Shown: positions 26,501-45,950, numbered from the stretch's first letter. The stretch: 57,225 nt of DNA from Sphingobacteriales bacterium (GCA_043757615.1 JAYVPA010000138.1:1-57225); one strand, 5' to 3'. Numbers and translations are program-made. Notes: a model not told the origin generated them from the letters alone.

Positions 26501-29500
26501 GTAAGTACCCGAAGCATCCACCGTTACAGAATCTGTAAGTTCATTTGCATCTATCGTCGCATTACAATTACCATCAGTATATAAATACACTTTTGCAGGA
26601 GTATATCCCCCTTCGCCATTATTCAGTAATCCATCTTTACTATCATCCAAAAATACTGTTCCGGCGATAAGATTTTTCAAGGGATATGCCGGACATGAAC
26701 TCACTTTTATTATTACGGTTGCATAATCACAGACCGGTGAAGGAGTGGAACAAACCTGATAAACCAAGGTGTCATAACCAATATATCCGGTACTTGGTGT
26801 ATATAATAAAGTTCCATTCGCGTTTACTGAAACTGTTCCGTGTGAAGGTTGTAAAAAACCGGTTGTCGTCACTGTAGTTCTGTCCAGAATTGCAGTAAAA
26901 CCCGTATCATTGGCAAGTATCGGAATGGTAACCGGCATATCCGTTTGTGTTACCGTATAATCATCATTCGCAAGTATTTGTTTGCTTAAGCAGAAAGGCT
27001 GTATGGAAGTTCCTACATCAAGATTTGGGAATCCTATACCACTCGCCAAAGCAGGGTCTTCTCCATAAGCCATTGACAGTTTTACTCCATTACAATCATA
27101 TACAGCTAATCCACTCTGATCCTTATCCGCAGCATCCAAAAGTCTTTGTAACACTAATGCTCCAAGAGTATAAGAAACATCATATTTAAATCCGCATGGA
27201 CTGGTACTTCCTGTTGTGCTATTGACATTTCCATCCCATTTGACATAAATAGTAGTAGCTGCTATGGGCATTACCCAAACGGGAGCAGTGTTTATTGATA
27301 AATCAGAAGAACCAGGTGCCCAGGCTATAGACCCAAAGTCAGTTAACCTGGCTTCAGGTATCAGTGCAAATGACCAGTCATAGTCACCTCCGTTATAAAC
27401 ACCGTCAAATGTCCAGGAGTCTATTAACTCATTTGCAACAAATACTTCTCCTCCTGAGCTTTTAAATTTGTATCCTCTTATACCTAAGGGATAACGAAAA
27501 ATACCTCTTGCGGGGATAACAAAAGAGCCGGCAGAACCCAGAGACGTAGTTGCGTTAATTGTAATAGCCTGACTAAACGGATTATAAAACATCACTACTG
27601 AAGAATCATAATTTCCTGCAGTCTGACTGGTAGGTACCGGTGTGTAGTATGTATCTCCATAAAAAGAAGCAGGAAGCACATTTAATTCTTTAGCATTCCA
27701 GCAATATACGGAGTCACCAAAGAAAACATCCACGCCAACAGGAGATGAACTGGTTACAGCAGCACCTGCTTTTACGCCTCCATTTTGAAAATAACTATCT
27801 CCTTCCTGTAGTGTAACTGTTGTATCCACCACACCATTGTTATCCTTGTCTATGGAAACAGTAGTATTGTTAGTTGCAGCACGAACGAACAGAGCTGTAT
27901 ACTGGAAATCATAATTCGATCCGGTATAACTTCCTATCGGTATATTAAATGAAGTTCCGAATTTCTGGGTATCATAAACATCGGTGGAATACGCCTGCTT
28001 TTCTTTTCTGACAGAAACGTTCCAGGATATCCTGCTTACGGCAATATCTTCTGTAGAAAATATTTTATCTTTTGCATCATAATAAATCTGGGCAGTATTT
28101 CTAGGGTTGGCTCTGAATATATTATCAAGAATAATACTTCCACCCCCGGGAATAATATCTGTCGGATAACCGGGTGCAACACCATTATATATATCTCCGT
28201 CTCCCCAAACTTCTGTTGTAGTTTGCTGAGGGTCTAAAATATTTGATTCATATCCATCTTCCCATTGGTCGTAAAATATTACTACTCCGGGATATGGACA
28301 TTTTAAACTTATTATTGTTCGGAAGGTATCGGTCGGAGTACCAAGTGTATGACAATCTGCTATTGAAAAAGCTGTTTTTAAATCTTTTTCCGGAGCCGGT
28401 ATGTAAAATATATGTGATTTAGATGCCTCTGTGCATGGGTCTGTAACAACAGAAAGTACAGTGATTACAACTTGTGCTGTATCCCATAAAGAAGTCAAAT
28501 CACCAATTCTATAAGTTAGTGTGTCATTTCCGACTGCTACAGGTGTATAAATAAGTACGCCGTTACTTACCAACACTTCTCCTTTTTTGGGTTGTGTTAT
28601 AACTGCAAGGCTGGCAGTGTTAATATTATTATTCGGATCATAATCATTTGACAATACGTTTAAATAATTCGCTGTTCCTAAATAAGAAAGATCATAGTCA
28701 TCGGCGGCTACAGGGGGACAGTTTCCCGCACATGCTGCATAACCAAAATTATTCGCACAATCTGTATTATTAAATGTACTGAAATGCGCTGTTTCAGCGT
28801 TCGTACCTTCCAACACCTTACCTGCGGGAAGCGTTGTAGTAGTAACTGAAATTAAATAGTTGGTATCTAAAACAGCACGCTGAAAAACATAATAACCACC
28901 TGAAGTAGTAGTGGTTGTCTGTATAACATCATCGCCGGGACCATAACTTCCATTATTATTAATATCTTTTGCTATGGTAACCGTTATCCCGCTAACACCC
29001 GTTTCTGCTCCATCCTTAATGTTATTTGTATTTGCATCAGCGTATACATACCCTTCTATATAATTACTGCCCCAATAATTCGGAAACTGATAAGACACTG
29101 CATCTATATCTGCTTTTATACTGGTAGTGGAAATAATTTTCAGATATCTTATTCCTGCGCTTTGTGTCACGGTATAATAAAAATCTGTAAAGTTAGGCTG
29201 AACCATTGTAGTTGTATAGGATTGTATACTGGTAAAAGTGGTATCATTTTTTGATCCTGTTACATCTACATTTGCAATAGTAGCTGCTGCATCTGCAGCT
29301 AAAAATAATTGGATATTGCTTCCATAAGGGACCACTGTTCCTAAATCTAAATAAAGTACTTTTCCGGTAGCATCCAGTTTAGCAAAATTAGCCTGATCAG
29401 GAGCACCTAATGACCTGTCAGGGTTTGCTGCTGTACTTGCGTTAGGGGTTGTAGGATTGGCTGTAGCATATCCCATACTATAAGTTATAGCACCTGACAT

Positions 29501-30028
29501 ACAATAAGGTGTACACGTTTTTTTGTGATAATATACTGCATCCACTCGGGTATCCTTTGTGGCGCTGCTAGAAGTAAAACGAACATATCTGGCACCACTT
29601 GCATTATTGACAACATACGTATACGTTGAAAATGTGCTGAGGTTACTGTTATAACTCTGTACCGCTGAAAATGTAGTGCCATCAGATGAAACACTGACAT
29701 TCCAGGTAGCACCTTTCGTATCCGTTCCGCTAGCTAAAAAATAAATAGTATCAAGATTGGGCACATTATCTGTTAGGTCAATAGTAACCTGTCCTAATTT
29801 TGTCGTGTCGGCATTATGTTTAAGCGTAGTAAATTTAGCATCATCAATACCAAGTGCATTATCAGGAGCTGAAACGTAACCTGTATTGTTTACAGTATAA
29901 TTCTTGCCATATCCTGTATACTTATAAATTAATGAATAGCCGGGCGAACAGCTTACCTGCGCGCTTGTATTTCCCATCCATGCTATCAGGATAAGGAAAA
30001 GGTACTGGTGTAAAAACTTGATCTTCAT
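23516..30028 (-). CDS. giant (2170 aa) secreted adhesin-like protein with T9SS C-terminal sorting domain
   Basis: Signal peptide MKIKFLHQYLFLILIAWMGNTSAQ. Cadherin/VCBS-like modules (NVLSNDYDPNN..., ILANDDYTV...ILANDTG). SdrD-B-like module (GYVYADANTNNIKDGAETGVSGITV). Por-secretion-tail-like C-terminus (FMPNPTYN...KGLYLVQF). Confidence 0.85.
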   Translation of the reverse strand: MKIKFLHQYLFLILIAWMGNTSAQVSCSPGYSLIYKYTGYGKNYTVNNTGYVSAPDNALGIDDAKFTTLKHNADTTKLGQVTIDLTDNVPNLDTIYFLASGTDTKGATWNVSVSSDGTTFSAVQSYNSNLSTFSTYTYVVNNASGARYVRFTSSSATKDTRVDAVYYHKKTCTPYCMSGAITYSMGYATANPTTPNASTAANPDRSLGAPDQANFAKLDATGKVLYLDLGTVVPYGSNIQLFLAADAAATIANVDVTGSKNDTTFTSIQSYTTTMVQPNFTDFYYTVTQSAGIRYLKIISTTSIKADIDAVSYQFPNYWGSNYIEGYVYADANTNNIKDGAETGVSGITVTIAKDINNNGSYGPGDDVIQTTTTTSGGYYVFQRAVLDTNYLISVTTTTLPAGKVLEGTNAETAHFSTFNNTDCANNFGYAACAGNCPPVAADDYDLSYLGTANYLNVLSNDYDPNNNINTASLAVITQPKKGEVLVSNGVLIYTPVAVGNDTLTYRIGDLTSLWDTAQVVITVLSVVTDPCTEASKSHIFYIPAPEKDLKTAFSIADCHTLGTPTDTFRTIISLKCPYPGVVIFYDQWEDGYESNILDPQQTTTEVWGDGDIYNGVAPGYPTDIIPGGGSIILDNIFRANPRNTAQIYYDAKDKIFSTEDIAVSRISWNVSVRKEKQAYSTDVYDTQKFGTSFNIPIGSYTGSNYDFQYTALFVRAATNNTTVSIDKDNNGVVDTTVTLQEGDSYFQNGGVKAGAAVTSSSPVGVDVFFGDSVYCWNAKELNVLPASFYGDTYYTPVPTSQTAGNYDSSVVMFYNPFSQAITINATTSLGSAGSFVIPARGIFRYPLGIRGYKFKSSGGEVFVANELIDSWTFDGVYNGGDYDWSFALIPEARLTDFGSIAWAPGSSDLSINTAPVWVMPIAATTIYVKWDGNVNSTTGSTSPCGFKYDVSYTLGALVLQRLLDAADKDQSGLAVYDCNGVKLSMAYGEDPALASGIGFPNLDVGTSIQPFCLSKQILANDDYTVTQTDMPVTIPILANDTGFTAILDRTTVTTTGFLQPSHGTVSVNANGTLLYTPSTGYIGYDTLVYQVCSTPSPVCDYATVIIKVSSCPAYPLKNLIAGTVFLDDSKDGLLNNGEGGYTPAKVYLYTDGNCNATIDANELTDSVTVDASGTYQFIYYPQKTVADDFNDATGANRTCANGSDGNSAWASDWVDGGDVLSVGFCNNGATVANTDVEFIKDGAISYALRLKDKNRSATRTVDLSGTSAAYLSFTYRRKSTTFIATDTVKVQASSNGTTFTNILLITGNAAIDASYINVYNLNVLPYSSATTYIRFITGNSSTDADTVYIDNVSVKYLKYTQCYIVKLDSANAVPVNYVTTTPYKQNFTLTSAGTCVTRFNIGIASKSLQISGTLYNDNNGLADALVNGTAFDNPSGATMYAYLINSSGKVAAKDTFDSGNGTYKFTKASILTTYTVLISTANVAVGANAPSVSLPSKWGSVGENYGVNNTAGSGNEAGTPNSSITVTMGSVSNVTGVNFGIQKPDAGADKSACYGYGTNTVTMAATTTPGTWIPRYDNPGTATITSSTSATTTITNFTDGGTYNFIWTNGDVSDTASVIISMPDAGKDFPFCGGSGAALTGNYTTGVWTAQAGNPAGSSLSSTVAGNATATYTNAATGLFKYIFTVNGCADTAQLSLSPKPNAGSASNTIAGCMSVKGYIGQLTATNPSPNSGAWSIVSGPGIISTPSSYLSGIDSLSRTGVSTTIKWVVIDALSCRDSVTTVLAPPAIDSAYVSKYSTQYCLTCPAQNGNTFSYYDLNGKLLARVTDSADAVAIGSTTFCGQLPYAVAGNPVAADVRSVASYIRDVGNVPQPYLPRAWNINTTNDAPMTIKLYFTDEELAALTSKTTQNGGYFDFGGNASRLLLVAYPNKSDTFIPPATPNGVVYRPTFARVGSYWEATFNTNKSATFYLYPTYWANGYALPVELIDFSATAVQDENLIRLDWSTASEINNSKFEIERSYDSKNFSKIAEQKGAGNSSGTKSYVLDDKEVVAGQIYYYRLKQVDNNGHFTYSKIVSAILSAKNDFSVSEFMPNPTYNLSVVKVMSPQQVDMSVKIFTVDGSLVKEDFYPLNKGETEITLEMNNLAKGLYLVQFNYKDMMEMRKLMKLP

Positions 30029-30422: not shown

Positions 30423-32651
30423 ATGGGAAAAATCCTTTTAAATCCGGCTGATTGCTGCCGTCGAATTATGTACATAAAAAATTTAAAGATGCTCAATTCT
30501 TTTATTTTGACGTTGTTTTTAAGCGCAACATCTTTTATTTCTTTTGCTCAAAACGTCGAAAAAACTGCTGCATCTGCAGTTAAGCCTTTAGAAATCTATT
30601 CAAGAGTACAAGTTGCTGCAAACGATTTACAGCGTGCAAAAATGTATGAAGCTATCGGATTTGACCATTTGCTGATTCAGCCTGATGGTTCTTTTATCGG
30701 TGAATTTTCACAAAGCGAAATCAGCAAGATGACCGAACTGGGTGCAAAAGTGAAAGTTTTAATCCCCGATGTAGTAAAAGATTTTATAACAAAGAATAAT
30801 AAAAAGAGGATTTCAAATATCAACTCAGACCTTACCTTGCCTAACGGATTTACATATGGCAGCATGGGAGGTTATCTTACATTTGATGAAGTGGTTGCAA
30901 AGCTGGATCAACTTAGAACCATGTATCCTAATCTTATTACAATAAAACAATCCATCGGAAAAAGTACGGAGAACCGTGATTTATGGGTGGTTAAGATTTC
31001 TGACAATCCGGATATTGATGAAAATGAACCAAAGGTGTTTTTTAATGCACTTACACACGCGAGAGAGCCGGCAGGTATGATGCAAATGATTTATTATATG
31101 TGTTATATCCTTCAGAATTATAATGCAGACCCTGAAATAAAACATTTAATAGATAATCGTGAATTATACTTCGAGCCGGTGGTTAATCCGGATGGATATG
31201 AATATAACCGTTCGTTAAATGCAAGCGGCGGTGGTATGTGGCGAAAGAACCGATATAAAGTAACAAATACCACCACTACTGTGAGTAATTGCAAAACGGT
31301 TATTACAGGTACGTTATGTGATACGACATGGAAAACAACCACACCATATACAACCAGTAATTGTCGAAATATTACCACAACAAAATGTGATACTTCCTGG
31401 AATAAATCACACACTACTTATACACTTAAAAATTGCAGAAGCACTACAGTTAAAGTCTGTGATACAACATGGGGAGCTTCTGTAAACACTTATACAACCA
31501 GTAATTGCCGTAATACAACCAAGACTACCTGTGATACTACACGCACTTCCAGCTCTACTGTTTATGGCGTAGACTTAAACAGAAATTACGGATATAAATG
31601 GGGATTTGATAATACAGGAAGCAGTGCTACAAATACGTCCGATACTTACAGAGGTCCGTATGCTTTTTCTGAACCAGAACTAATTGCCGTAAGGGATTTT
31701 AGTATTTTAAAACAATTTAAAGAAGTTTCCAATCAACACACTCCAGGGAATGATCTTACCTATCCTTTTAGCTATAATAATTCAGTTGTAAATCCTGAAC
31801 AGGCATTTTATAATCTCAAGAATAGTTTAGCAACAGAAGATAACCACTTTACCATCGGTCATATGCTGCAGACTCAAGGTTATTTAGCGAATGGTGAAGC
31901 AAGCGACTGGCAATTTGGTGACCAGATTACAAAACCAAAAGCTTATTCCTGGACTCCGGAATTAGGAACCACTTTCTGGCCAACACAAGCCGAAATTGAA
32001 CCGTTGTGCTTAACAAACATTCGAATGAATGATAATATTGCCTGGATGGCTGCTGAATATTTCAGATACTCTGCAAATGCGGGTTTAAATACAACTTCTG
32101 CAACTTTCACTGTACCTGTAACAATTATTAATTACGGTGATAACAGTGGCTCAGTAGAAACTATTAAATTTATACCTTTATCTGTATCAACAAGTACATC
32201 AACCGGAAATGATTCGATATCATTAAATGGTATAACTCCGGGTATGACCACTACCAAAAATCTTACATTAAGTCTTTCAGGCTATAGTGGAACAGGAACC
32301 ATAAGTGGCGTACTGCGAATTTCATACTCCGACGGGTACACACAAGATAAACCATTTAGTTTTACGTACGCACTTCCACTCGGATTGAGAAAGCAAGCAA
32401 CAACAACTGACGCAAAAAAAGTGAATGATATCTATTCTTTATATCCGAATCCGACAGGCAGTTTATTTCATATAAATTCAACAAATAATGAAGTACCTGT
32501 TTCTGTTTCCGTTTATGATATGAATGGAAGTATTATGAAAACAATACAGAACACCAACGACGTTGACTTATCCGGTCTGGCTAACGGTATCTATACAATC
32601 AGAATAGAAACAACAAGTGGGATTATTGACAAAAAAATTACCAAGCAATAA
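30423..32651 (+). CDS. M14 family zinc carboxypeptidase with internal Cys-rich repeat insertion and T9SS C-terminal sorting domain
   Basis: HAREP (HxxE zinc site), WRKNR, GVDLNRNY, and the C-terminal YPNPTGSLFHINS...GIYTIRIET. The more likely start is 30468 or 30489 (MLNSFILTLFLSATSFISFAQN signal peptide). Confidence 0.85.
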   Translation: MGKILLNPADCCRRIMYIKNLKMLNSFILTLFLSATSFISFAQNVEKTAASAVKPLEIYSRVQVAANDLQRAKMYEAIGFDHLLIQPDGSFIGEFSQSEISKMTELGAKVKVLIPDVVKDFITKNNKKRISNINSDLTLPNGFTYGSMGGYLTFDEVVAKLDQLRTMYPNLITIKQSIGKSTENRDLWVVKISDNPDIDENEPKVFFNALTHAREPAGMMQMIYYMCYILQNYNADPEIKHLIDNRELYFEPVVNPDGYEYNRSLNASGGGMWRKNRYKVTNTTTTVSNCKTVITGTLCDTTWKTTTPYTTSNCRNITTTKCDTSWNKSHTTYTLKNCRSTTVKVCDTTWGASVNTYTTSNCRNTTKTTCDTTRTSSSTVYGVDLNRNYGYKWGFDNTGSSATNTSDTYRGPYAFSEPELIAVRDFSILKQFKEVSNQHTPGNDLTYPFSYNNSVVNPEQAFYNLKNSLATEDNHFTIGHMLQTQGYLANGEASDWQFGDQITKPKAYSWTPELGTTFWPTQAEIEPLCLTNIRMNDNIAWMAAEYFRYSANAGLNTTSATFTVPVTIINYGDNSGSVETIKFIPLSVSTSTSTGNDSISLNGITPGMTTTKNLTLSLSGYSGTGTISGVLRISYSDGYTQDKPFSFTYALPLGLRKQATTTDAKKVNDIYSLYPNPTGSLFHINSTNNEVPVSVSVYDMNGSIMKTIQNTNDVDLSGLANGIYTIRIETTSGIIDKKITKQ

Positions 32652-32709: not shown

Positions 32710-32733
32710 AGTTTTTGATAATGAGATTTAAGA

Positions 32734-32763
32734 ATATTACTTCTCAGGTCACATTTGAGGGAA
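32734..32763. repeat. att-like direct repeat C (degenerate copy of the lysS 3' end), distal island boundary
   Basis: atattacttctcaggtcAcatttgAggGaa matches 43002-43031 at 27 of 30 positions. On the minus strand it reads FFPQM then TGA, so the coding potential is decayed. Confidence 0.75.
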
Positions 32764-32765
32764 AA

Positions 32766-32841
32766 AGAAAAGATGAGTGATAATTGGAATTGCCAATGTA
32801 AACATCGCGAGTAAAAAACAGTGAAAAACAAAATTTATCTT
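32766..32841 (-). pseudogene. fragment copy of the first 24 codons of the batA-like gene (start codon mutated ATG to ATA)
   Basis: 69 of 76 nt identical to 23343-23418 by my manual alignment. Minus-strand reading is INFVFHCFLLAMFTLAIPIITHLFFFPQM*, against MNFVFPWFLLALFTLAIPIIIHLFYF in the intact gene. Confidence 0.8.
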
Positions 32842-32912
32842 GTCTTGTGTTTAAAGATAGGAAATAGTGATTAGATATGAGTTAACAGTTAACAGTTTTT
32901 TTAGGAATTCGA

Positions 32913-33221
32913 TTAATATAAACTCGAAGCTAAGACAATTTGATGCACATAAAGATACTTGCTGTCTGTTTTAAAAATGATAATCCAATTATCAATTGCT
33001 ATACAACTGAAATCATTTGCGGCATAAACCTTATGCCGACATAATGCATATTTAATGGGTTGTGTGTATTTTTTGATTTTCTTTAGAAATCTATCTTTCC
33101 ATCTTTGTCCTGAACCTTTCGTATTGGTTTGTTCAACAAAGAGAGCAACATTTGTAAGTGATTTTTTAGCTAAAGCACTATATTTTACTTGCAAATGATT
33201 TCTTCTTTTGAATTTTTGCAA
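32913..33221 (-). CDS. putative ParE/RelE-family type II toxin
   Basis: ~95-102 aa and overlaps the upstream small ORF. KYSALAKKSLTNVALFVEQ resembles the ParE/RelE N-terminal helix pattern, and WIIIFKTDSKYLYVHQIV resembles the C-terminal beta strands. Assigned by pattern only. Confidence 0.4.
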   Translation of the reverse strand: MQKFKRRNHLQVKYSALAKKSLTNVALFVEQTNTKGSGQRWKDRFLKKIKKYTQPIKYALCRHKVYAANDFSCIAIDNWIIIFKTDSKYLYVHQIVLASSLY

Positions 33222-33396
33222 TTTCTTTATCTATTGATTCTTTCACTTCTTCTTCTGTAAAAAACTCATCATTCTCATGTTCTTTGATAAGTAAAGAAAT
33301 TTCTTCATCAGTAAATTTTCTACCAATGCCGAAAGCCAAATCATGTGCAGTAAGTTTACGAATAGACTCTTTAGTGGATGTTTTAGAAATTGTCAT
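33178..33396 (-). CDS. putative antitoxin (small acidic protein upstream of the toxin-like ORF)
   Basis: 72 aa, charged. Overlaps the downstream toxin-like ORF, which is classic type II TA gene organisation. Confidence 0.35.
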   Translation of the reverse strand: MTISKTSTKESIRKLTAHDLAFGIGRKFTDEEISLLIKEHENDEFFTEEEVKESIDKEIAKIQKKKSFASKI

Positions 33397-33630
33397 AAAT
33401 AAATTTAAGAAGAAAAAGTTAGAATTGCAATGGGGATTTTGTCTGAACCACAGATTATACTGATTTAAGGATAGTTATGATTTTTATTTACTCACTAAAC
33501 ATTTTAGATTTACTGTACAAATCGTCAATATCTAATTTGTCAGTCATTTTTATAAATAATTTCTGCTTTTTATGTTTGAAGTAATTTTAAACAAAAACAA
33601 ATAAATTTCTTGTTTCTTCACTAAATTTAT

Positions 33631-34020
33631 CTATATCAGTAACATATTTAATTCGTGTAGAAAACTGTATATACTTTTTTTATTTAAATCAGGATTTAAG
33701 TAACACCATAAAAGAACTTCTTCATTTTCTATATTATAATGATGAGCGTTGTATTTATTTCGCATATTTATTATTTTATTATGCAAACCACTCATGATAT
33801 TTTTAACATTTTTATTCTCTTCAGAAAATATCGGATTATTATTCAAGAAAGTCAAAATCTGTATCCATTCAATTTTTGTTCCATCACGAGAAGCAAAACA
33901 TTTTCCGTACGTTATTATTGCTGTTATTAATAATTTGTGTTTTAATTTTTTTGATAATTTTTCATCTTTAATTGAACTTAACTTCTGAATATCTTCTATG
34001 CATTCTATACATATATCCAA
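33631..34020 (-). CDS. hypothetical protein, possibly the 3' part of a frameshifted gene
   Basis: The frame is open upstream to 34119 without an ATG (the track start is TTG). A separate short ORF (MDDLGETRYDNELGNILL*) starts at 34163 in another frame and ends at 34107, so one indel in 34110-34119 would fuse them. Confidence 0.35.
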   Translation of the reverse strand: MDICIECIEDIQKLSSIKDEKLSKKLKHKLLITAIITYGKCFASRDGTKIEWIQILTFLNNNPIFSEENKNVKNIMSGLHNKIINMRNKYNAHHYNIENEEVLLWCYLNPDLNKKSIYSFLHELNMLLI

Positions 34021-34182
34021 ATCTTTACAAAGTAAATTATATGCTTTGTATTGTTTTGAAAATTTAGAATTAATTATGACATAATTACATGGCTTGCCAT
34101 CAATTCTTACAACAGGATATTACCAAGTTCGTTGTCATATCTTGTTTCTCCTAAATCATCCATAATAGAAATTGTTTATTTC

Positions 34183-34208
34183 TACTTCTCAGGTCGCATT
34201 TGCGGAAA
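34183..34208. repeat. att-like direct repeat B (copy of the lysS 3' end), left boundary of the integrase-bearing island
   Basis: tacttctcaggtcGcatttgcggaaa matches 43006-43031 at 25 of 26 positions. The minus strand still reads FFPQMRPEK*, with synonymous CGA for AGA and TAG for TAA. Confidence 0.8.
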
Positions 34209-34316
34209 AAAGACCAGTCATTAAGGTAAGAGATTTATTTATAATAGGTTATGAGGATTTTCATTTTTCGAGTTACAAATAAGTAACAAGTTGGTGGAAG
34301 TAATAAGATGTAAAAT

Positions 34317-34739
34317 CTAAGTATATTCAATTTCAAATTTTCCATTAGATGTATCTAAAAATAATTCTGATGTAACATCAATATTTGACCATCTAATAAT
34401 AAATTGACTAGTTGAAAAATATTTATTTAATAAATCTTCGACGTGCAATCTTGCCTCGTTGGTATTATCTATATCAACATCACTTTCTCCAGTTAGGATA
34501 GCTCCTCCACAGGCATAAACTTTAACTAAGTCTTTATTATATCTCTTTAATGAATTAATAATAAACTCCTCCATATCATTGCTATGATTAGGACTTGGTT
34601 GATGTATCATTGAACCTGCCTTTTGAATAGGGTCATAAATACCAACTGCTATACATGGTCCCATACCATTTGAGCAAATTATTTCAGGTGATTTTGCATA
34701 TCCTACTTCAAACATATTAATCTGTATACCATATGTCAT
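34317..34739 (-). CDS. CheD-like cysteine deamidase-fold protein (outside any chemotaxis context)
   Basis: INMFEVGYAKSPEIICSNGMGPCIAVGIYDPIQKAGSMIHQPSP aligns with CheD of T. maritima (IGIGEYAVMKNPGVIVTLGLGSCVAVCMRDPVAKVGAMAHVMLP) and of B. subtilis. The catalytic Cys and His are present, and Thr is replaced by Ser at position -6. The later GGA motif (VYACGGAIL vs KIAGGASMF) is conserved. 140 aa, similar to CheD. Confidence 0.65.
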   Translation of the reverse strand: MTYGIQINMFEVGYAKSPEIICSNGMGPCIAVGIYDPIQKAGSMIHQPSPNHSNDMEEFIINSLKRYNKDLVKVYACGGAILTGESDVDIDNTNEARLHVEDLLNKYFSTSQFIIRWSNIDVTSELFLDTSNGKFEIEYT

Positions 34740-34759
34740 TTTAATAAATATTCATTAAG

Positions 34760-37700
34760 TTAAAAAATAATATTTACAGCTACTGCGCCTTTAAAATTGA
34801 AACCAATATTAAAATTAACGCGTTGATTATATTTAAATTTTGCCCAATCAATATCAGGATTATCTGATTTACTAAAAAAGAGTCTGTCACCTGTTTTATC
34901 TCGTTTTATAAATCCAAAAGAGGATTCAATTTTGGTTATTACACCACTAAATAATTTTTCTCTATTATTTTCTTTTAGAATTAACCTAACCTGACTTCTG
35001 TTTTTAAATTTCACGGTTGACAAGAATTCAAATACATCATTGTATTCTGCTAATTCATCTAAAATATAGCAACACCTACCATACAAGAATTGTTCTTCAT
35101 GGTTATTATCATTCTTAGTAAATGATTTCCTTAAGTAGTGTTTTATATCTATGTAATCAGGATTGGCTTCTCTCATCAAGAATGTGGAATATAGATAATT
35201 TAAATCTTTCGAATTTGGATTTTCTTCTAAACATTTCCTAAGTACTTCTTTGGCTTTGTCTTTTGCATTATTCTTATTATAGAATTTACACAACCGTATT
35301 GCAATATAAACACTATTAGGATTTGCAGTAAAAGCATTTTCAAGTATTTTTAATGCTCTAGGATGTTCACTTATTATTGTATTAAATTCTGCTTCTGTAT
35401 CAGCAATGTAACTTTCCAAAGGAAAATCTCGTTTTGCATTCTTTAAATTCTTTTCAAAATCTTTAATTTTACTTTCTATACTTTCTTGTAACGCGTCTTT
35501 ATTAACTGCATTTTTTATATCTAATACTAAAGCTTTTAGCAGAGTATGATAAGGATATGCACTCTTATTCTTAGCTGAATTTAGTTTGCCACAAATTTCT
35601 TTTATTGTATCAAGATATTTTTTCTGTTTAACTGTATTATCTGTCGTTTCAAACTTTCTTAAATAAAACTCAGCCCTAGAGTGTAAAATATTTGGATTCT
35701 TTTCATCTAATTCTTGAGCCTCTTCTAATAGCTCATTTGCTCTGGTTAAATCTCCATCATGAGAATTCATTTCAAAAATTGCTTCTTGCAAGAATAAATT
35801 AGAATCATTTTTCAAATCCTCTCGAATATTTCTGTATATCAATCTAACATATTTAGGATTGCTGAAAATTGCTTTTAGATTTTTTGCTTTAATCATTGCT
35901 ATATATGCAATCCTGTCACTTTCATAGTCAATATCTAAATTATTGAGTATTCTAATCATTTTATCATATCTATCTTCATCATTTCTTAAGACTTCCTCGA
36001 ATAATATTTCAGCAATATGTTGATGTCTAGTTTCTAATGCATAATCATTTATCGAATACTTCCAATTATAGAATACAATATTCTCTAATGGTTTAAATAA
36101 ATGCTCTTTGAAGTAACTAAATCCAATATTATGAACTCTAGATATTAAGCCTACTCTTGTATAGACACCCAATCTGTGTAGTATAGCAATTGTTAAGTAT
36201 AATTGTTTTGCATCATCATTAGAAATTGATTGATATTCTTTGCTTACGATTTCAGCAAATGGTCTTCCTTGTGTAGCTTCATGTAAAGCAACCAATAATT
36301 GTCTTCCTGCTCTTTCTGATAATTCCTTAATCCTTTCTTCTTTGGATTTACTTGTTAAATAACCAAGAGAATTATTTTTTTCTAATAAATCTAATAGTTC
36401 AATAATTTCTTTATCATTTAGATATTTTAGTTCGTATTCTACAGTTACATACTCCTCTAATGATTTACATTCTGTATTCCAAGTGCTATATCTTTCTGCA
36501 CAAATAATAGTTAGTAATATTTTGTCTTTTTTTGCTTTATCTATTATTTCCTCTATATCATTTACGTGTTCAGAAGGATTGTCTATAAATAAATATATTC
36601 TATCTTTTAGATAGTAATATAATTCGTTAATTGGCTCATATCTTAATTTTACATCATCATTTAAAAACAAGCAAATCTTATCAAAATCAACAGCCGCATC
36701 CCAAGCCAATCTTTTTAATAGAACAGATTTTCCTGATCCAGCCTGTCCTTTAATTAAATAAAAATCATTTGGACTAATTCTGTTTAACTCTTCATCAAGA
36801 AATATCTCTAGTAATAAGTTGTCCTTTATATACCTATTGCAATCCATATTTTTAATTATTGGATCCCAATTATTAAAATAACCCTTATAGAAATTCTTAG
36901 GGTCTGTATCTTTTGATTTAAGATTTGAATAAACATACTCAATATCTAATTCTAAGAAACTTTTTAGACTCTCGCTAATATTAATGTCTTGACGTTGAAC
37001 CTTAAATTTATTAATTATCGGATGAGAAACAGGACTAAGGATTGTAGCCAATTTTCTGTCCGCAATAGAAATTTGACTATTGAGAGTATTAAGAAATTGT
37101 TCAAATGACATCTTTAAAGATGATATTTTTTTGCTTTCCCACAGTTTTGCTTCTTCGTCTTTAATGTATGGTCCAATGAGATATGACCTTGGTACATTTT
37201 CATGAGAAGAGAAGGTTTGTTTAATGATAGTTCTTATATCTACGTCATCAAAACTAAATCCAACAAAGAGAAAAGGATTTTCATACTTGTAATCTTTAAG
37301 CTTATCAAATAACCTATCTCTATTTGTTTTATGGTCTATATATTGTTCTGGAGATAATATCAATGGAATTTCAACATTCTGTGCTTCTGATATACAACCA
37401 TGTAATTTTATGTAAAATAAATCGTTATTGGATTTTATTTGGTCATTTACCTTTTGACCATTCTTAATAAAGGGAACTATATTTTGAATTCTTTCTTTAT
37501 TAGTATCATAAGCCCTTTCAATAGTTAAGTCATAGTTTACAGTAAATATAGCCCTCCATCTGAAATTTGGTATTAACTTATGAAATTCTGTTGGGTTAAA
37601 GCCACTAAATATTTCATAGATATATTTTTGAACATCTAGTAAATCTGATTCACTAGTACATAGTTCTGCTACATGCTGTAAAGAAGCATTTTTAAAATCA

Positions 37701-37858
37701 TCTGATAAATATTTTTCTACTAATAAATCTCTTAAATCATTTCCAAGCGGTATTTTTTTACCATTCATATTAGTTGCCCCAAACGATGCACCTGCACCTA
37801 AAAATAAAACAACATTTCCTGTTTTTATTTGCTCTAAAAGATGCTTAGGTATTTCCAT
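34760..37858 (-). CDS. SIR2-like (SIR2_2 type) / P-loop STAND NTPase / TPR-like repeats / C-terminal cold-shock-like domain protein; candidate anti-phage sensor-effector
   Basis: SIR2_2 pattern: GNVVLFLGAGASFGA, FTVNYDLTIERAY, IKLHGCI, FLFVGFSFDD. Walker A is IKGQAGSGKSVLL and Walker B-like is IYLFIDNPSE. TPR-like helices include NPNILHSRAEFY, NPNSVYIAIRLCKFY and NPNSKDLNYLYSTFLM. The C-terminus FSGVITKIESSFGFIKRDKTGDRLFFSKSD...QRVNFNIGFNFKGAVAVNI follows the CspA pattern. I prefer the start MEIPKHLLEQ at 37858; the track ORF extends to 37963. Confidence 0.75.
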   Translation of the reverse strand: MEIPKHLLEQIKTGNVVLFLGAGASFGATNMNGKKIPLGNDLRDLLVEKYLSDDFKNASLQHVAELCTSESDLLDVQKYIYEIFSGFNPTEFHKLIPNFRWRAIFTVNYDLTIERAYDTNKERIQNIVPFIKNGQKVNDQIKSNNDLFYIKLHGCISEAQNVEIPLILSPEQYIDHKTNRDRLFDKLKDYKYENPFLFVGFSFDDVDIRTIIKQTFSSHENVPRSYLIGPYIKDEEAKLWESKKISSLKMSFEQFLNTLNSQISIADRKLATILSPVSHPIINKFKVQRQDINISESLKSFLELDIEYVYSNLKSKDTDPKNFYKGYFNNWDPIIKNMDCNRYIKDNLLLEIFLDEELNRISPNDFYLIKGQAGSGKSVLLKRLAWDAAVDFDKICLFLNDDVKLRYEPINELYYYLKDRIYLFIDNPSEHVNDIEEIIDKAKKDKILLTIICAERYSTWNTECKSLEEYVTVEYELKYLNDKEIIELLDLLEKNNSLGYLTSKSKEERIKELSERAGRQLLVALHEATQGRPFAEIVSKEYQSISNDDAKQLYLTIAILHRLGVYTRVGLISRVHNIGFSYFKEHLFKPLENIVFYNWKYSINDYALETRHQHIAEILFEEVLRNDEDRYDKMIRILNNLDIDYESDRIAYIAMIKAKNLKAIFSNPKYVRLIYRNIREDLKNDSNLFLQEAIFEMNSHDGDLTRANELLEEAQELDEKNPNILHSRAEFYLRKFETTDNTVKQKKYLDTIKEICGKLNSAKNKSAYPYHTLLKALVLDIKNAVNKDALQESIESKIKDFEKNLKNAKRDFPLESYIADTEAEFNTIISEHPRALKILENAFTANPNSVYIAIRLCKFYNKNNAKDKAKEVLRKCLEENPNSKDLNYLYSTFLMREANPDYIDIKHYLRKSFTKNDNNHEEQFLYGRCCYILDELAEYNDVFEFLSTVKFKNRSQVRLILKENNREKLFSGVITKIESSFGFIKRDKTGDRLFFSKSDNPDIDWAKFKYNQRVNFNIGFNFKGAVAVNIIF

Positions 37859-38262
37859 ATATAATTTGATTAATGCTAATATAGTGAAAATAATATATTT
37901 TAATAGGTAAGCCTTTATATATGCAGGAATTTTTCTAGCAGTCATAACCGCCATTAGTAGCATCGAAAAAAGCCTGGAGAAATAAAAATTAAGGGATAAA
38001 ATTATATTAGAATCTACTTATTAATTTTAAGTAAAAATTTGTGTAAATCCACAAAGCATGGATTTAACTATATGTCGGTGATAGCTCGTGCAAAACAATT
38101 TATTTTAATTATAAAAGCTATAATGCATATAAATAGATAGGAACCCAAATAACATATAATTAGATAATAAAAATGGAATCTTATCTGTATAATAATTACC
38201 TCTGATTATCAGATAGTTTATTGTATATATTCGACAATAAAATTCATCTGTTATAATATTTA

Positions 38263-39111
38263 TTAAGGTTCTGTTACAATAGCTTCATCATTTGCAGACT
38301 CTATATCGTAATATAAATAAAGGCTATTTTCTCTATACATTTTATATCTTGCCTGTTTGAAACGGAATGATTTTAATATTGCCGACATTTTGGTTTGTAC
38401 TTCGCTTATAACTTCTCTATCATAAAATGATTCACCTGTAAAACTAATTACAGTATTTTTGTTTCCTGACAACCCAATAGAAGTACCAATCGTAGAAAAT
38501 TCGTTTGCTGCAATTATTGCATAATTTCGTCTCATTTTAGGAAATTCGTTTCTTTGTAGTATTTGTGCTCGTTTTTTTAATTCTATTGATTTTGACCTTA
38601 TTGATGGATTCGCACTTTGCATGCCAGCATCAATTATTTTACCCCAACCATAAAATATTCCTAGTTCCAATATTAAATTATCAACAGAACCACTAAAGGC
38701 ACTACGATTAAAAGGCTTTTTAAATGATTCTAATTCCATGTTCAATCGTGCTTCATCTACTTCCATTCCGTCAACCGTTATTTCACTATTAACTTTGTAG
38801 TCACTAACTGTATCAGAATAGATTATTGAATTGGTATTACTACTCGTTAAACTAATATTAGTATTAGTATTATCATTAGGATTTGATTTTATAATTAACC
38901 AAAATATGTAGACGAATAATAATACAAAAGCGACTGCTAAAATATTACCACCTTTGCCGAGTGTAATTTCCTTTTTAATAAAATGTTTATTCTTGATAGC
39001 ACCACCGCAGTTACTGCAAGAAACATATTCATTATGGATATAGTTCTCTGTTACTTCGAATTGTTCCTTGCATTTGGAACATCTTACGTTTTTTACTTTT
39101 CTTTTTTCCAT
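38263..39111 (-). CDS. zinc-ribbon / single-TM membrane protein with uncharacterised C-terminal domain
   Basis: N-terminal CSKC...CSNC four-Cys ribbon, a TM helix ILAVAFVLLFVYIFWLII, and a ~200-aa C-terminal region with no family I recognise. Confidence 0.55.
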   Translation of the reverse strand: MEKRKVKNVRCSKCKEQFEVTENYIHNEYVSCSNCGGAIKNKHFIKKEITLGKGGNILAVAFVLLFVYIFWLIIKSNPNDNTNTNISLTSSNTNSIIYSDTVSDYKVNSEITVDGMEVDEARLNMELESFKKPFNRSAFSGSVDNLILELGIFYGWGKIIDAGMQSANPSIRSKSIELKKRAQILQRNEFPKMRRNYAIIAANEFSTIGTSIGLSGNKNTVISFTGESFYDREVISEVQTKMSAILKSFRFKQARYKMYRENSLYLYYDIESANDEAIVTEP

Positions 39112-39537: not shown

Positions 39538-40476
39538 TTATCTGTAAATATTCTTTAATAAATTAACAGCAGTATCGACGTTATAAAATATATTTTCATC
39601 ATCGAACTGCTTATTTGAACTTCTTAGTTCTCTAACATTTGTTCTTAAATTACTTCTTGTGTTCATTTTGTACATACCTTTGTTAAAATTATCTTGTATA
39701 TGTTCTTCAATAAATAATTCTTCTGAACAATTACTTACTGCATAATGTGCTAGTGCGTACATTAATGTTGTTTTATTCTTAAAAGGTAAAAGTTTTTTTG
39801 TGTATATTTTTTCGATATTAAAATAAATAATAAAAAGCTTGTTAATGTAAAAATTGTAGGTATTTGTTTTAAGCAAATCTTTTAAAATTAGTTTTTCACC
39901 ATTCAAATTTTTTATCCGTTGCATTAATCTATTCTCAATCCTTAAAACCCTTTTCATTTTAAAAAAATCTGGAATAGAAATTTTTTTATTTTTCAATTCA
40001 GCTATCTTATCATACAATATAATTTCATTTGTTGTTGATGTAAAATATATTGATGGCGTTTTTGTAGCATACAAAATTTTATCATGGTTGCGATACTTTT
40101 TACACCTTAGTATGTATTTCAGTAAATCTTCACTTACAATTATATTCATTGCTATATCTAAGCGTGTTACAAATGCTTTAGAAAAATCTACTCCAAAATT
40201 CTTAGATAATTTCTTGACTAGAAACTTAAAATCATTTAAGGATGGGCAAGCTAAATTGTTACCTAGTAATAACTTTGTAAAACTTCCCTCAAATAAGATA
40301 GTGAAGGGCATTTGTAGTTTATTAGGATTATTTATTATTCGAAATTCAGCTCCATTAAACAGAAACAGAAACACCTCATTTCCGTTCTTTGAGGTATATC
40401 TCTTCCCCAACTGTACTTTTTCACTTACATCTGGAAATTTATTTAACTGTAGTAAAAGTCTTATTGTATCTATCAT
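39538..40476 (-). CDS. putative replication initiation protein (phage/plasmid gene II/X, Phage_CRI-like)
   Basis: The N-terminus MIDTIRLLL, VTRLDIAMNI and VLRIENRL resemble my memory of Phage_CRI-type Rep proteins. Position in the mobility module supports this. Weak, pattern only. Confidence 0.35.
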   Translation of the reverse strand: MIDTIRLLLQLNKFPDVSEKVQLGKRYTSKNGNEVFLFLFNGAEFRIINNPNKLQMPFTILFEGSFTKLLLGNNLACPSLNDFKFLVKKLSKNFGVDFSKAFVTRLDIAMNIIVSEDLLKYILRCKKYRNHDKILYATKTPSIYFTSTTNEIILYDKIAELKNKKISIPDFFKMKRVLRIENRLMQRIKNLNGEKLILKDLLKTNTYNFYINKLFIIYFNIEKIYTKKLLPFKNKTTLMYALAHYAVSNCSEELFIEEHIQDNFNKGMYKMNTRSNLRTNVRELRSSNKQFDDENIFYNVDTAVNLLKNIYR

Positions 40477-40957: not shown

Positions 40958-41239
40958 TTACTTCTTTTTATTGATTGTTATTGAATTAGCTAATTCCTCC
41001 ACGGTTTTTATCTTTTTTGCGAATGCGTATTTCCTTAGGTCTTTCTTTTTGAAATACATTTGTTTGCCATTGGGTTTGTAGTGAGCAATTTCTCCTCTAC
41101 TAGTTAGCTTGTGGAGGGTACTAATAGAAATACTCAAGAACTTCGCTGCATCTTCTGTGCAAACGGGTTCTTCTGTGTAAGCTCTAAGTCGTCTGTTTAT
41201 TCGCTTGAGGATTACGTCTAATTGATGAATTTTATTCAT
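40958..41239 (-). CDS. excisionase-type (MerR-like, HTH_17) DNA-binding protein
   Basis: AAKFLSISISTLHKLTSRGEIAHYKPNGKQMYFKKKDLRKYAF is the typical excisionase-family HTH pattern. 93 aa, near the integrase. Confidence 0.7.
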   Translation of the reverse strand: MNKIHQLDVILKRINRRLRAYTEEPVCTEDAAKFLSISISTLHKLTSRGEIAHYKPNGKQMYFKKKDLRKYAFAKKIKTVEELANSITINKKK

Positions 41240-41805: not shown

Positions 41806-42864
41806 CTAAAATATACTTGGAATTTTATTTACTGCATCTGTTTTAGTTTTGTCTATAATCTTAGTATAAACCTGAGTACTTTTTATGTCTTTATGTCCTA
41901 ATAATTTTTGTACTGTAAATATATCTACTCCATTATTTAATAATTGTGTAGCTGCAGTATGTCGTGAACTATGAAAAGATAATTGTTTTGTGATACCAGC
42001 TTTCTTTAGCAACTCTTTTGCACATCTATTCACACTTGAATGGTCTTTTGGCAAATCAAATACATAATCATCGTTTTCTTTTCTGTCACCAATAAGTTTT
42101 ACTGCACTTTCACTTAATTCAAAATAGTTAAATGCAGATGTTTTAATCTGTTTTTTCTTAACTCTGCAACCGTTTTCACTTACTTCAATATTACTCCATT
42201 TAAGGCTCATAATATCTGAAACTCGCAGACCGGTATAACATGCAAATAAAAATGCTCTCTTAACTTCATTATTATAAAACTGAGTATTAAATACTTTCTT
42301 CATTTCTTCAATTGTAAGAAAATTCTTTTCTGTTTCTGATTTTTGTGGGGTGTCTATTTTTCTTGTCGGATTTGATGGGATAACATCATCTTTTACTGCT
42401 TGATTTAAAACCGCATTAATTTTCTGATAATACGTTCTGATTGAATTAGGTGACAATCCTTCATCTTTCAAAAAAGAAAAAAAACTCTCAAACCATTTCT
42501 TATCCATGTTCTTAAACTTTATTCTCCTATTAGTAAAATTATTAAGATGTGATAGGACACTATTCCAGCTCTCTTGTGTTTTAGTATTTTTTTTCTTCAT
42601 TTCATATTTGAAATATTCTAAAAAGTCCAAGTCGTTGTCTGATTTCTTTTTAATTCCATAATCCTCATTGATTAACTCTAATTCTCTCGTAGCTACAATA
42701 CGGTTTAATGCTTCTTTTATGAGTCTTCTTTCTTTAGATGTATTAGATTCCTTTATAGTTAATCCTTTTATGGTTTCTGTCCACCTATCATCGCCCATAT
42801 AGATATCCATGTAGAATGAGGTATCTCCATTTTTTAAATTCCTTTCTCTTAATTTAATTGCCAT
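41806..42864 (-). CDS. tyrosine-type site-specific recombinase/integrase (Bacteroidota phage-integrase family)
   Basis: TGLRVSDIMSLKWSNI (box I Arg) and HSSRHTAATQLLNNGVDIFTVQKLLGHKDIKSTQVYTKI (HxxR...H...Y). N-terminal SAM-like domain. 140 nt from the lysS stop. Confidence 0.9.
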   Translation of the reverse strand: MAIKLRERNLKNGDTSFYMDIYMGDDRWTETIKGLTIKESNTSKERRLIKEALNRIVATRELELINEDYGIKKKSDNDLDFLEYFKYEMKKKNTKTQESWNSVLSHLNNFTNRRIKFKNMDKKWFESFFSFLKDEGLSPNSIRTYYQKINAVLNQAVKDDVIPSNPTRKIDTPQKSETEKNFLTIEEMKKVFNTQFYNNEVKRAFLFACYTGLRVSDIMSLKWSNIEVSENGCRVKKKQIKTSAFNYFELSESAVKLIGDRKENDDYVFDLPKDHSSVNRCAKELLKKAGITKQLSFHSSRHTAATQLLNNGVDIFTVQKLLGHKDIKSTQVYTKIIDKTKTDAVNKIPSIF

Positions 42865-43001
42865 ATCTGTCGCATTTACTTATAACAAAAATAACAAATA
42901 AGTAACAAAATCACTCAGAAATAACAAAAAATATCAAGGTATGGTTATTCAGAATAATCATAACTAATTGATAATTAACTAATTTAACTGTCTATTGTTG
43001 G

Positions 43002-43031
43002 ATATTACTTCTCAGGTCTCATTTGCGGAAA
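43002..43031. repeat. att-like direct repeat A (functional 3' end of lysS), right island boundary
   Basis: atattacttctcaggtctcatttgcggaaa. The minus strand encodes ...FFPQMRPEK*. It is repeated at 34183-34208 and 32734-32763. Confidence 0.8.
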
Positions 43032-44534
43032 GAATAAAACTTCCTGTATAGACGACTGATTGCTGAATAACATCGCGAGTCTGTCGATGCCGAAACCAAT
43101 GCCTGAGGTTGGCGGCATGCCATATTCCAAGGCACGCAGGAAATCCTGGTCTATAAACATCGCTTCATCGTCACCGCGCTCCTGAAGTTTTAACTGGTCT
43201 TCAAAGCGTTCACGCTGGTCAATCGGATCATTTAATTCCGTATACGCATTCGCAATTTCCTTTCCATTTATCATCAGCTCAAAACGCTCTACCAAACCTT
43301 CTGTCGTGCGATGTTTTTTTGTCAGGGGCGACATTTCCACCGGATAATCAATAATGAACGTCGGCTGGATATAATTATGTTCGCAGCGTGCACCAAAGAT
43401 TTCATCTATCAGTTTTCCTTTGCCCATGGAACTATCTGTTTCAATATGCAATTGTTTACAGACATCACGCAGTGCAGCTTCATCCATTGCAGAAACATCA
43501 AAACCTGTATACGTTTTTATTGCTTCATAAATGGAAATACGTTTGTACGGCGCTTTAAAGTTTATCATGTTCTCGCCCACTTCCACCGCAGTTGTTCCAT
43601 TTGTATCTACACACGCTTTTTCCAGCAATTGCTCTGTGGTTTCCATCATCCAGAAATAATCTTTATACGCCACATAAAATTCCAGTACGGTAAACTCAGG
43701 ATTATGCGTTTTATCCATTCCTTCATTTCTAAAATTTCTTGAAAACTCATACACCCAGTCAAAACCTCCAACTATCAATCTCTTCAGATATAATTCATTC
43801 GCGACACGCAGATACAAAGGAATATCCAGCGCATTATGATGCGTCATAAATGGTTTTGCAGCCGCGCCGCCGGGAATGCTTTGCAGCACAGGTGTGTCCA
43901 CTTCTAACGCACCTTTATCATTTAAAAATTCACGGATGGAATTCATCATTTTGGTGCGTTTAACAAATGTTTCGCGCACTTTTGAATTCACCACTAAATC
44001 TACATAACGCTGACGGTAACGCAATTCCGGATCAGAAAAAGCATCAAATACATTTCCTTCATCATCTGTTTTTACAACAGGCAATGGACGCAGTGATTTT
44101 GCCAGCAAGGTAAATTCTGTTGCATGAATAGTTATCTCGCCCATCTTTGTAATAAAAGCATATCCTTTTATCCCAATGAAATCACCAAGGTCTAATAATT
44201 TGGAGAAAAGTACATCGTACAAAGATTTATCTTCTGTCGGACAAATATCATCGCGGCGAACATAAATTTGTATACGGCCCGCACTGTCCTGGATTTCCGC
44301 AAACGTTGCTTTTCCTGCAGGGCGTGCAGCCATCAATCTGCCGGCAACACAGACTTCCTGGTAATTCAAACGGTTCTTCGCACCATCTTCCAAAACCTCT
44401 TCCTTGTAATTTTCTTTTATCTCTTTAGAAGTCACACTTACAGGATATAAAGGCGCAGGATATGGATCTACACCTAATGCTTTTATTTTTTCCAGTTTCT
44501 CACGACGTACTTGTTCTTGCTCAGAAAGTTGCAT
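43005..44534 (-). CDS. lysS: lysine--tRNA ligase (class II)
   Basis: 509 aa. RNFRNEGMDKTHNPEFTVLEFY (motif 2) and GIGFGIDRLAML (motif 3), with an OB-fold N-terminus. Confidence 0.95.
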   Translation of the reverse strand: MQLSEQEQVRREKLEKIKALGVDPYPAPLYPVSVTSKEIKENYKEEVLEDGAKNRLNYQEVCVAGRLMAARPAGKATFAEIQDSAGRIQIYVRRDDICPTEDKSLYDVLFSKLLDLGDFIGIKGYAFITKMGEITIHATEFTLLAKSLRPLPVVKTDDEGNVFDAFSDPELRYRQRYVDLVVNSKVRETFVKRTKMMNSIREFLNDKGALEVDTPVLQSIPGGAAAKPFMTHHNALDIPLYLRVANELYLKRLIVGGFDWVYEFSRNFRNEGMDKTHNPEFTVLEFYVAYKDYFWMMETTEQLLEKACVDTNGTTAVEVGENMINFKAPYKRISIYEAIKTYTGFDVSAMDEAALRDVCKQLHIETDSSMGKGKLIDEIFGARCEHNYIQPTFIIDYPVEMSPLTKKHRTTEGLVERFELMINGKEIANAYTELNDPIDQRERFEDQLKLQERGDDEAMFIDQDFLRALEYGMPPTSGIGFGIDRLAMLFSNQSSIQEVLFFPQMRPEK

Positions 44535-45872: not shown

Positions 45873-45876
45873 TGAG

Positions 45877-45950
45877 TGGTCCCGCATGGGCTCGAACCAT
45901 GGACCCCCTGATTATGAGTCAGGTGCTCTAACCAGCTGAGCTACAGGACC
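45877..45950 (-). tRNA. tRNA with CAT anticodon (Met, or Ile2 if lysidine-modified)
   Basis: The reverse complement GGTCCTGTAGCTCAGCTGGTTAGAGCACCTGACTCATAATCAGGGGGTCCATGGTTCGAGCCCATGCGGGACCA folds as a cloverleaf. It has a 7-bp acceptor stem, a D-loop AGCTCAGCTGGTTAGAGC, the anticodon loop CTCATAA and a T-arm GGTTCGAGCC. CCA is not encoded. Confidence 0.9.

Follow-up and report, generated by a model that had tools for sequence, protein, structure and literature searches.

A 57,225-nt stretch of DNA from a Sphingobacteriales bacterium (GCA_043757615.1 JAYVPA010000138.1:1-57225; the whole stretch is called the window here) carries two adjoining genes that a preliminary description, made from the sequence alone, had put forward as a new two-gene defence module. 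Gene 1 encodes a large SIR2-STAND protein and gene 2 a small CheD-like protein. The pair is not a new two-gene system, and gene 2 is a real, independently distributed gene rather than a conserved partner of gene 1. Gene 1 is a predicted Avs5-like, SAMD9-like SIR2-STAND protein with a variant NTPase subfamily, which is a kind of protein already known, and by analogy with Avs5 it most likely acts alone as a sensor-effector. Both genes are cargo of an 8.8-kb integrative element at the 3' end of lysS in a Chitinophagales genome. The probability of this whole picture, a self-sufficient gene 1 and an unrelated gene 2 that share one integrative element, is put at about 0.7.

The pairing was examined from both sides. 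A total of 80 gene 1 homologue loci were fetched with 6-kb flanks, and a profile of the gene 2 family was run against the six-frame open reading frames (ORFs) within 6 kb of each homologue. None of the 80 gave a match at E <= 1; the same profile recovered the window's own gene 2 at E 3.8e-54, as a positive control. If at least 5% of gene 1 homologues had the partner, the chance of a 0/80 result would be below 2%. In the other direction, 34 independent loci of the gene 2 family were searched with the gene 1 family profile, and no match was found at E <= 0.01 (0/34). This profile also had a working control, as it recovered the same-strain contigs L107 and L108. The sole other contigs that hold the pair are L107-L109, where the gene 2 product is 100% identical and the gene order is the same, so these are the same element from three sequencing runs. 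The pairing of gene 1 and gene 2 is therefore unique to the window's element, and the proposed two-gene defence module does not survive the test.

No other gene took the place of gene 2. When the three nearest ORFs on each side of the 80 homologues were clustered, no neighbour family was common to more than 6 of the 80 loci. Gene 1 has no conserved neighbour, and the family therefore acts like a single-gene system. It is a large family: the homologue search returned 799 matches, and among the best 120 listed almost all are full length (~1030-1040 aa) at 42-50% identity. The named homologues come from Bacteroidota, Deltaproteobacteria and Nitrospirae, with "SIR2 family protein" as the commonest annotation; Chloroflexi, Planctomycetota and Proteobacteria are represented as well among the genome loci. 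The family's spread over the phyla is patchy, at 30-50% identity. Nine large neighbours of gene 1 homologues, picked by size and not at random, were sampled, and 7/9 were defence-type: three SNF2/PLD DISARM-like helicases, a DUF1156 protein, Eco57I- and MmeI-type type IIG enzymes, and an AAA_13 protein. Gene 1 homologues thus often adjoin restriction-modification and DISARM-like genes.

The ORFs, motifs, shared direction and spacing that the preliminary description quoted are all present in the translations and coordinates. The translations of the two genes contain GNVVLFLGAGASFGA, FTVNYDLTIERAY, IKLHGCI, FLFVGFSFDD, GQAGSGKS, IYLFIDNPSE and GPCIAV, and gene 2 lies directly 3' of gene 1 and co-directional with it, with exactly 20 nt from the gene 1 TAA to the gene 2 ATG. 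The longest gene 1 ORF spans 34760-37963 (-) and encodes 1067 aa; homologues begin at Met36 of this ORF, the ATG at 37858, which leaves 1032 aa, in agreement with the preliminary description. This start (MEIPKHLLEQI) was set by aligning 19, then 83 homologues. The features of both genes and of their surroundings are collected in Table 1.

Gene 1 had been described as a protein of four parts, SIR2, P-loop, TPR and OB/cold-shock, and Pfam, the family profile and the predicted structure agree on all four. The structure was predicted with AlphaFold2 (AF2) from an 84-sequence alignment, with a predicted local distance difference test score (pLDDT) of 86.9 and a predicted TM-score (pTM) of 0.76. The SIR2 part is matched by the PADLOC ThsA SIR2 model at E 2e-19, the family profile matches the SIR2 NADases EfAvs5, ThsA and KomC in the PDB, and residues N108, D110 and H153 are invariant in the alignment. 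In the P-loop NTPase the Walker A motif is GQAGSGKS (residues 371-378), with G371, G374, G376 and K377 invariant, and the Walker B motif is LFID, whose last residue, D426, is nearly so. Residues 613-946 of the model are all-helical, and the TPR array in this region is presumed to be the sensor.

The last part needed more evidence, as its own Pfam match is under the gathering cut-off. The gene 1 family profile matched the cold-shock domains of CspA, CspB and UNR at E 4e-5 to 1e-3, at positions ~972-1033; PF00313 is precomputed in many gene 1 homologues; and residues 969-1031 of the model form a five beta-strand barrel. Because the family profile, the domain in homologues and the five-stranded end of the model agree, the cold-shock domain is real. 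As had been suggested, a STAND-type sensor that uses a SIR2 NADase as its effector is a plausible role for gene 1.

The nearest known proteins by sequence and by structure are Avs5 and SAMD9. EfAvs5 was the top PDB sequence match of the gene 1 family profile (9JAP_A, E 6.4e-17; 9JAP is the EfAvs5 filament, PMC11897194) and came first when the gene 1 model was searched with Foldseek (E 1.3e-24). Avs5 proteins (EfAvs5, EcAvs5, PaAvs5) resemble gene 1 in having, on one polypeptide, SIR2_2 at the N-terminus, a STAND NTPase in the middle and a repeat sensor at the C-terminus. They are also single-gene systems, as gene 1 seems to be with no conserved partner, and their NADase defence has been shown experimentally as single genes (PMC11897194, PMC12931631). 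The two differ in size and sensor: gene 1 has 1032 aa where the EfAvs5 PDB chain has 869, and it carries a long TPR array and a terminal OB/cold-shock domain, whereas the EfAvs5 sensor is "unusually short" and has neither.

Human SAMD9 (9ZJR) was the second Foldseek match, at E 3.1e-20 and TM 0.46/0.43 over ~1180 columns; next in rank were a STAND-TPR protein, DSR2 and ThsA. The likeness to SAMD9 is structural only, as the SAMD9 chain was absent from the PDB matches of the HMMER gene 1 profile at E <= 0.01. The preliminary description knew of no protein of this type that ends in a cold-shock domain, and on this point it was mistaken: the SIR2-P-loop-TPR-OB core of the SAMD9 family was published in 2017, with an OB domain "most similar to cold-shock proteins" (PMC5445408), and its domain order is the same as that of gene 1. 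In addition, Legrand et al. 2025 presented a bacterial protein of ~1000 aa and SIR2 type, the "AVAST type V" protein of Desulfobacula (UniProt A0A1F9N8W4), as an analogue of SAMD9 over its full length, and likewise Avs6 and Avs9 (PMC12680541). Kaur et al. 2020 and 2021 do not describe the gene 1 architecture. Unlike SAMD9, gene 1 has no SAM domain and no AlbA_2 nuclease; the protein opens directly with SIR2, with no AlbA_2 Pfam match. The demonstrated effector of SAMD9/9L and Avs9 is AlbA_2 and not SIR2, whereas the SIR2 catalytic residues of gene 1 are intact.

These comparisons suggest how gene 1 might work. Domain order, intact catalytic and Walker residues, the lack of a conserved partner, the defence-island neighbourhoods of homologues and the EfAvs5 and SAMD9 structures as nearest matches were all computed here, and the mechanism is taken over from EfAvs5 and PaAvs5, in which a ligand leads to oligomerisation or filamentation and then to NAD+ hydrolysis (PMC11897194, PMC12931631); the same would be expected of gene 1. 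At rest the protein would be a monomer with its SIR2 domain held inactive. The TPR array would recognise a phage-derived ligand, and binding of nucleic acid by the OB/cold-shock domain may help in this. SIR2 domains would then be brought together as the nSTAND5 NTPase drives NTP-dependent oligomerisation or filamentation, as in EfAvs5, PaAvs5 and STAND biology more widely, and the activated SIR2 would hydrolyse NAD+, leading to abortive infection. Gene 2 would be a separate enzyme, probably co-transcribed, and would not be part of the SIR2-STAND system.

Gene 2 had been aligned to the CheD glutamine deamidase, with Cys and His retained. The fold and the catalytic positions were upheld, but membership in the CheD family proper is not supported. 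The Pfam CheD family (PF03975) gave no match to gene 2 with the threshold relaxed to E <= 10, and none to the 52 relatives scanned at E <= 0.01. The best NCBIfam CheD match reached 27.9 bits over residues 11-56 only, where the cut-offs are 220-370 (240 for the best model). More direct comparisons were stronger: phmmer matched gene 2 to T. maritima CheD (2F9Z_C) at E 6.5e-5, and the family profile did so at 4.2e-7. The AF2 model of gene 2 has a pLDDT of 97.3, and its best Foldseek match was again 2F9Z_C (E 3.6e-10, TM 0.76/0.70). Residues S23, C29 and H46 align with the Thr, Cys and His positions of CheD, which we take to be its catalytic positions, as established for CheD by Chao et al. 2006. 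C29 and H46 are nearly invariant across 52 family sequences, and S23 is invariant among 12 closer members.

T. maritima CheD (PDB 2F9Z) is thus like gene 2 in fold, in its similar size and in its catalytic positions, and differs from it in sequence, at ~20% identity and with gene 2 failing the CheD family thresholds. At lower Foldseek ranks (2-20) were NTAN1, YfiH/PgeF and CNF; NTAN1, PgeF/YfiH and CNF1 share the fold and the Cys-His chemistry with gene 2, but at TM 0.4-0.6 and 8-15% identity, and they are larger, with extra elements. Taken together, sequence and model suggest that gene 2 is probably an active Ser/Cys/His amidohydrolase of the CheD-fold family. No che or methyl-accepting chemotaxis protein (MCP) genes were found in the island or in the gene 2 family loci examined, and, to our knowledge, a chemoreceptor pathway would not be expected in the host lineage. 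Because the gene 2 family occurs mostly in archaeal housekeeping or bacterial defence-island settings, its substrate almost certainly differs from that of CheD.

The family was mapped with an exhaustive HMMER search, which found 167 representative clusters, mostly 135-175 aa; a word-indexed search with gene 2 returned only gene 2 itself. Of the interpretable loci among the 34, about half have core, archaeal-looking neighbourhoods. These place the CheD-like gene with TFB and ribonucleotide reductase, with TFE and IleRS, with a Hel308-type helicase, with Taw1, a TFS-like Zn ribbon and a GHMP kinase, or with Cbf5, Nep1, Ogg and EndoIII. Such archaeal core contexts were seen in loci L088, L094, L100, L110, L113 and L121, without chemotaxis genes. 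They suggest a housekeeping amidohydrolase role for these CheD-like members.

The remaining interpretable loci are in mobile or defence settings. Two metagenomic loci that are divergent from each other, L085:234-3111 and L089:1-2550, have a fused type I methyltransferase-S (MTase-S) gene directly 5' of the CheD-like gene, the junction being an overlap or a 7-nt gap. Compared between the two loci, the MTase-S products share 54% identity and the CheD-like products 43%. The next gene after the CheD-like one in L089 encodes a HEPN RiboL-PSP protein. Other contexts of this type have AIPR, RloB with AAA_21, a UvrD-like helicase with an integrase fragment, or an HTH protein with a PIN_12 protein. The closest relatives of gene 2 are 45-50% identical and sit on 1-1.6 kb contigs, where the partial neighbours had no PDB sequence match. 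Among longer family members, one ankyrin-repeat fusion was the only informative fusion. A phage-derived or anti-defence origin of gene 2 was considered and dropped, as the phage collection gave one weak partial family match, plasmids gave none and viral contigs essentially none. In BFVD, the fold of gene 2 was found only in Mimiviridae-like giant viruses, namely Fadolivirus, Tupanvirus, ChoanoV1 and a Moumouvirus protein annotated "CheD chemotaxis protein".

Several points weigh against the favoured reading of a self-sufficient gene 1 and an unrelated gene 2. On the side of gene 1, the PADLOC scan matched no Avs model, only the SIR2 part of ThsA models, and no experimental study of any member of the family was found in the literature searched. 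Its NTPase belongs to nSTAND5 (PF25199), whereas that of the characterised Avs5 is nSTAND3 (PF20720) (PMC12931631); on gene 1 the nSTAND3 model reached E 0.025 and 14.7 bits, against a cut-off of 27.2. A literature search on nSTAND5 returned nothing relevant.

On the side of the pair, no terminator-like hairpin was found across 33.9-38.4 kb, the 20-nt gap included. The short gap with no terminator-like site implies co-transcription, so the two genes are probably co-transcribed. The GC content at third codon positions (GC3) is near-identical, 0.18 in gene 1 and 0.17 in gene 2, which implies long co-residence, and the genes have probably travelled jointly for some time. Because they are probably co-transcribed and matched in GC3, a local, lineage-specific functional tie between them is possible. 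A sigma-70 promoter scan gave background level only and no Bacteroidota TAnnTTTG motif was found upstream of gene 1 or gene 2, and so we infer the transcription units. Finally, in a rough neighbour-joining (NJ) tree, made from a small sample and with no support values, the members from defence contexts, including the window's gene 2, fall apart from those in housekeeping contexts. Gene 2 groups with members that likewise adjoin the 3' side of another defence gene, a hint that it may have some role in defence.

This last point bears on the alternative that survives best, which we nevertheless consider unlikely: gene 2 would be a defence-island gene independent of gene 1, either a toxic or effector amidohydrolase or a recurrent accessory, and the two would be co-located through island dynamics. 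The non-archaeal loci fit such a role, with their neighbours MTase-S fusion (twice), HEPN RiboL-PSP, AIPR, RloB/AAA_21, PIN_12, and UvrD-like helicase with an integrase fragment, as does the separate clustering of defence-context members in the tree. The CNF1/CheD/NTAN1 fold is also one that deamidase toxins use. However, no PADLOC model matches gene 2, the tree is a small one and lacks support values, nothing like an antitoxin partner is seen, the core genome is the setting of many relatives, and the family is absent from plasmids and nearly absent from the phage collection.

A bolder reading, which seems rather unlikely, is that the bacterial CheD-fold amidohydrolases are an unrecognised defence-island class that recurs as a 3' operon partner of unrelated defence genes (SIR2-STAND here; MTase-S in L085 and L089) and is also found beside AIPR and RloB/AAA_21. 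Deamidation by such enzymes, either of the adjoining defence protein or of a target in phage or host, would adjust immunity, and gene 2 would tune or add to the SIR2-STAND response. A literature search on CheD-like proteins in defence returned nothing relevant.

It is improbable that the two genes form a true two-gene system, the model of the preliminary description, with the CheD-fold enzyme acting either on the SIR2-STAND protein or jointly with it. CheD matures chemoreceptors, and by analogy gene 2 could deamidate the sensor as an activator or a brake; it could also be a second effector that acts on a phage or host protein once STAND is activated. In favour of such a system, the genes are co-directional and 20 nt apart, with no terminator-like site between them and matching GC3. 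The Ser, Cys and His of gene 2 are intact and nearly invariant across its family, and other family members also stand directly 3' of a defence gene, with the MTase-S and CheD-like pair conserved in L085 and L089. Against this, the pairing occurs only in this strain's element, at 0/80 and 0/34 elsewhere; relatives of gene 1 function as single genes (PMC11897194, PMC12931631); and archaeal housekeeping contexts make up about half of the gene 2 family loci that could be interpreted. The adjoining defence genes also vary (MTase-S, SIR2-STAND, AIPR, RloB), which leaves no common substrate.

Many prokaryotic STAND clades are not defence-associated (PMC12803255), but it is highly improbable that gene 1 is a non-immune protein, a regulatory or signal-transduction STAND NTPase with a SIR2 deacylase and an RNA-binding OB domain that is mobile by chance, given that its SIR2_2 domain is closest to the NADases of ThsA, Avs5, KomC and DSR2, that it is carried on an integrative element, that its homologues adjoin restriction-modification and DISARM-like genes, and that their patchy cross-phylum spread is typical of defence genes.

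On the favoured reading, the two genes lie side by side on one mobile element by chance or as a feature of this lineage only, and a false lead for a new system is removed. The gene 1 family is very widespread in bacteria and has the SIR2-P-loop-TPR-OB core of human SAMD9, with the SIR2 site intact; it could be a tractable model for infection sensing by that core, especially by the terminal OB domain. The remaining novelty is the unannotated CheD-fold family of gene 2, whose organisms and contexts are free of chemotaxis genes and which in bacteria is repeatedly found beside defence genes.

The two genes had been placed at the cargo end of an AT-rich, integrase-bearing island, and this description was confirmed: the island has a GC content of 0.275 against 0.36 in the host flanks, an integrase, and attachment-site-like (att-like) repeats that bracket both genes. 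Three direct copies of a core, TTCTTTCCGCAAATGnGACCTGAGAAGTAA, lie at the positions given for the att copies in Table 1. The three copies stand in tandem and each matches the last ~30 nt of lysS, which implies two elements integrated in series, one being the intact element of 8.8 kb (element 1, ~34.2-43.0 kb) and the other a remnant. Close to each end of the intact element, on the inner side, is a copy of an exact 15-nt repeat, ACAAATAAGTAACAA (34275-34289 and 42894-42908), a possible arm site for the integrase. In related Chitinophagales contigs the same lysS end runs straight into an unrelated gene, and the site is thus empty in them.

Table 1. Features of genes 1 and 2, the element that carries them and the adjoining sequence (positions in the window)
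Feature	Position	Strand	Description
Gene 1	34760..37858	-	1032 aa; SIR2, nSTAND5 NTPase, TPR array, OB/cold-shock domain (CSD)
SIR2_2 NADase-type effector domain (gene 1)	37049..37858	-	~residues 1-270; Pfam SIR2_2 E 3.7e-24
STAND P-loop NTPase core (gene 1)	36458..36895	-	Residues 322-467; Pfam nSTAND_NTPase5 (PF25199) E 1.2e-23
Helical TPR-like repeat array (gene 1)	35021..36022	-	~residues 613-946; TPR_19 E 2.4e-10, TPR_14 E 8.2e-7
OB / cold-shock-like domain (gene 1)	34763..34954	-	Residues 969-1032; Pfam CSD E 1.7e-4, under gathering cut-off
Gene 2	34317..34739	-	140 aa; probable stand-alone CheD-fold Cys-His amidohydrolase
Left att copy, element 1	34171..34211	.	Duplicate of last ~30 nt of lysS; ~105 nt past gene 2 stop
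Zn-ribbon membrane protein	38263-39111	-	282 aa; N-terminal CxxC...CxxC zinc ribbon, transmembrane segment
Rolling-circle replication initiator, G2P / Phage_CRI-like (filamentous phage)	39538..40476	-	PF05144 E 8.6e-10
HTH_17 protein, excisionase-like	40958..41239	-	Pfam HTH_17 E 3.1e-11
Tyrosine integrase	41806..42864	-	Phage_integrase E 1.5e-31; Phage_int_SAM_5 E 6.3e-22
XRE regulator	within element 1		
Right att copy	42994..43034	.	Authentic 3' end of lysS
lysS	43005-44534	-	Class II aminoacyl-tRNA synthetase Pfam match; cluster names "lysine-tRNA ligase [Chitinophagales bacterium]"
Third att copy	32726..32766	.	Bounds 1.4-kb integrase-less remnant element
Remnant element	32767-34170		1.4 kb; weak ParE-like pair (32913-33396), 129-aa ORF (33631-34020)

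No Zot-like or coat genes were recognised in element 1, and it looks like a small integrative, possibly rolling-circle-replicating element, not a prophage. The Zn-ribbon membrane protein upstream of gene 1 gave weak PADLOC matches to PDC-M14A (E 4.8e-4) and PycTM (E 0.011). It was considered as a component of the system and set aside, as it is 300-400 nt off and is not conserved beside gene 1 homologues.

Some further observations concern the host. Two loci from close host relatives (L118:1-5113 and L119:1-5113), with an empty lysS site, have another integrase island with BREX genes (PglZ, BrxL) beside a HAD-hydrolase gene. The counterpart of this BREX region in the window is near tRNA-Met (45876-45950). 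At 30423-32651 (+) the window encodes an M14 carboxypeptidase with a type IX secretion system (T9SS) sorting tail and a Thr/Cys-rich internal repeat, TSNCRNTT...CDT, in about four copies. The ORF of this carboxypeptidase is adjoined by a 2170-aa ORF at 23516-30028 (-).

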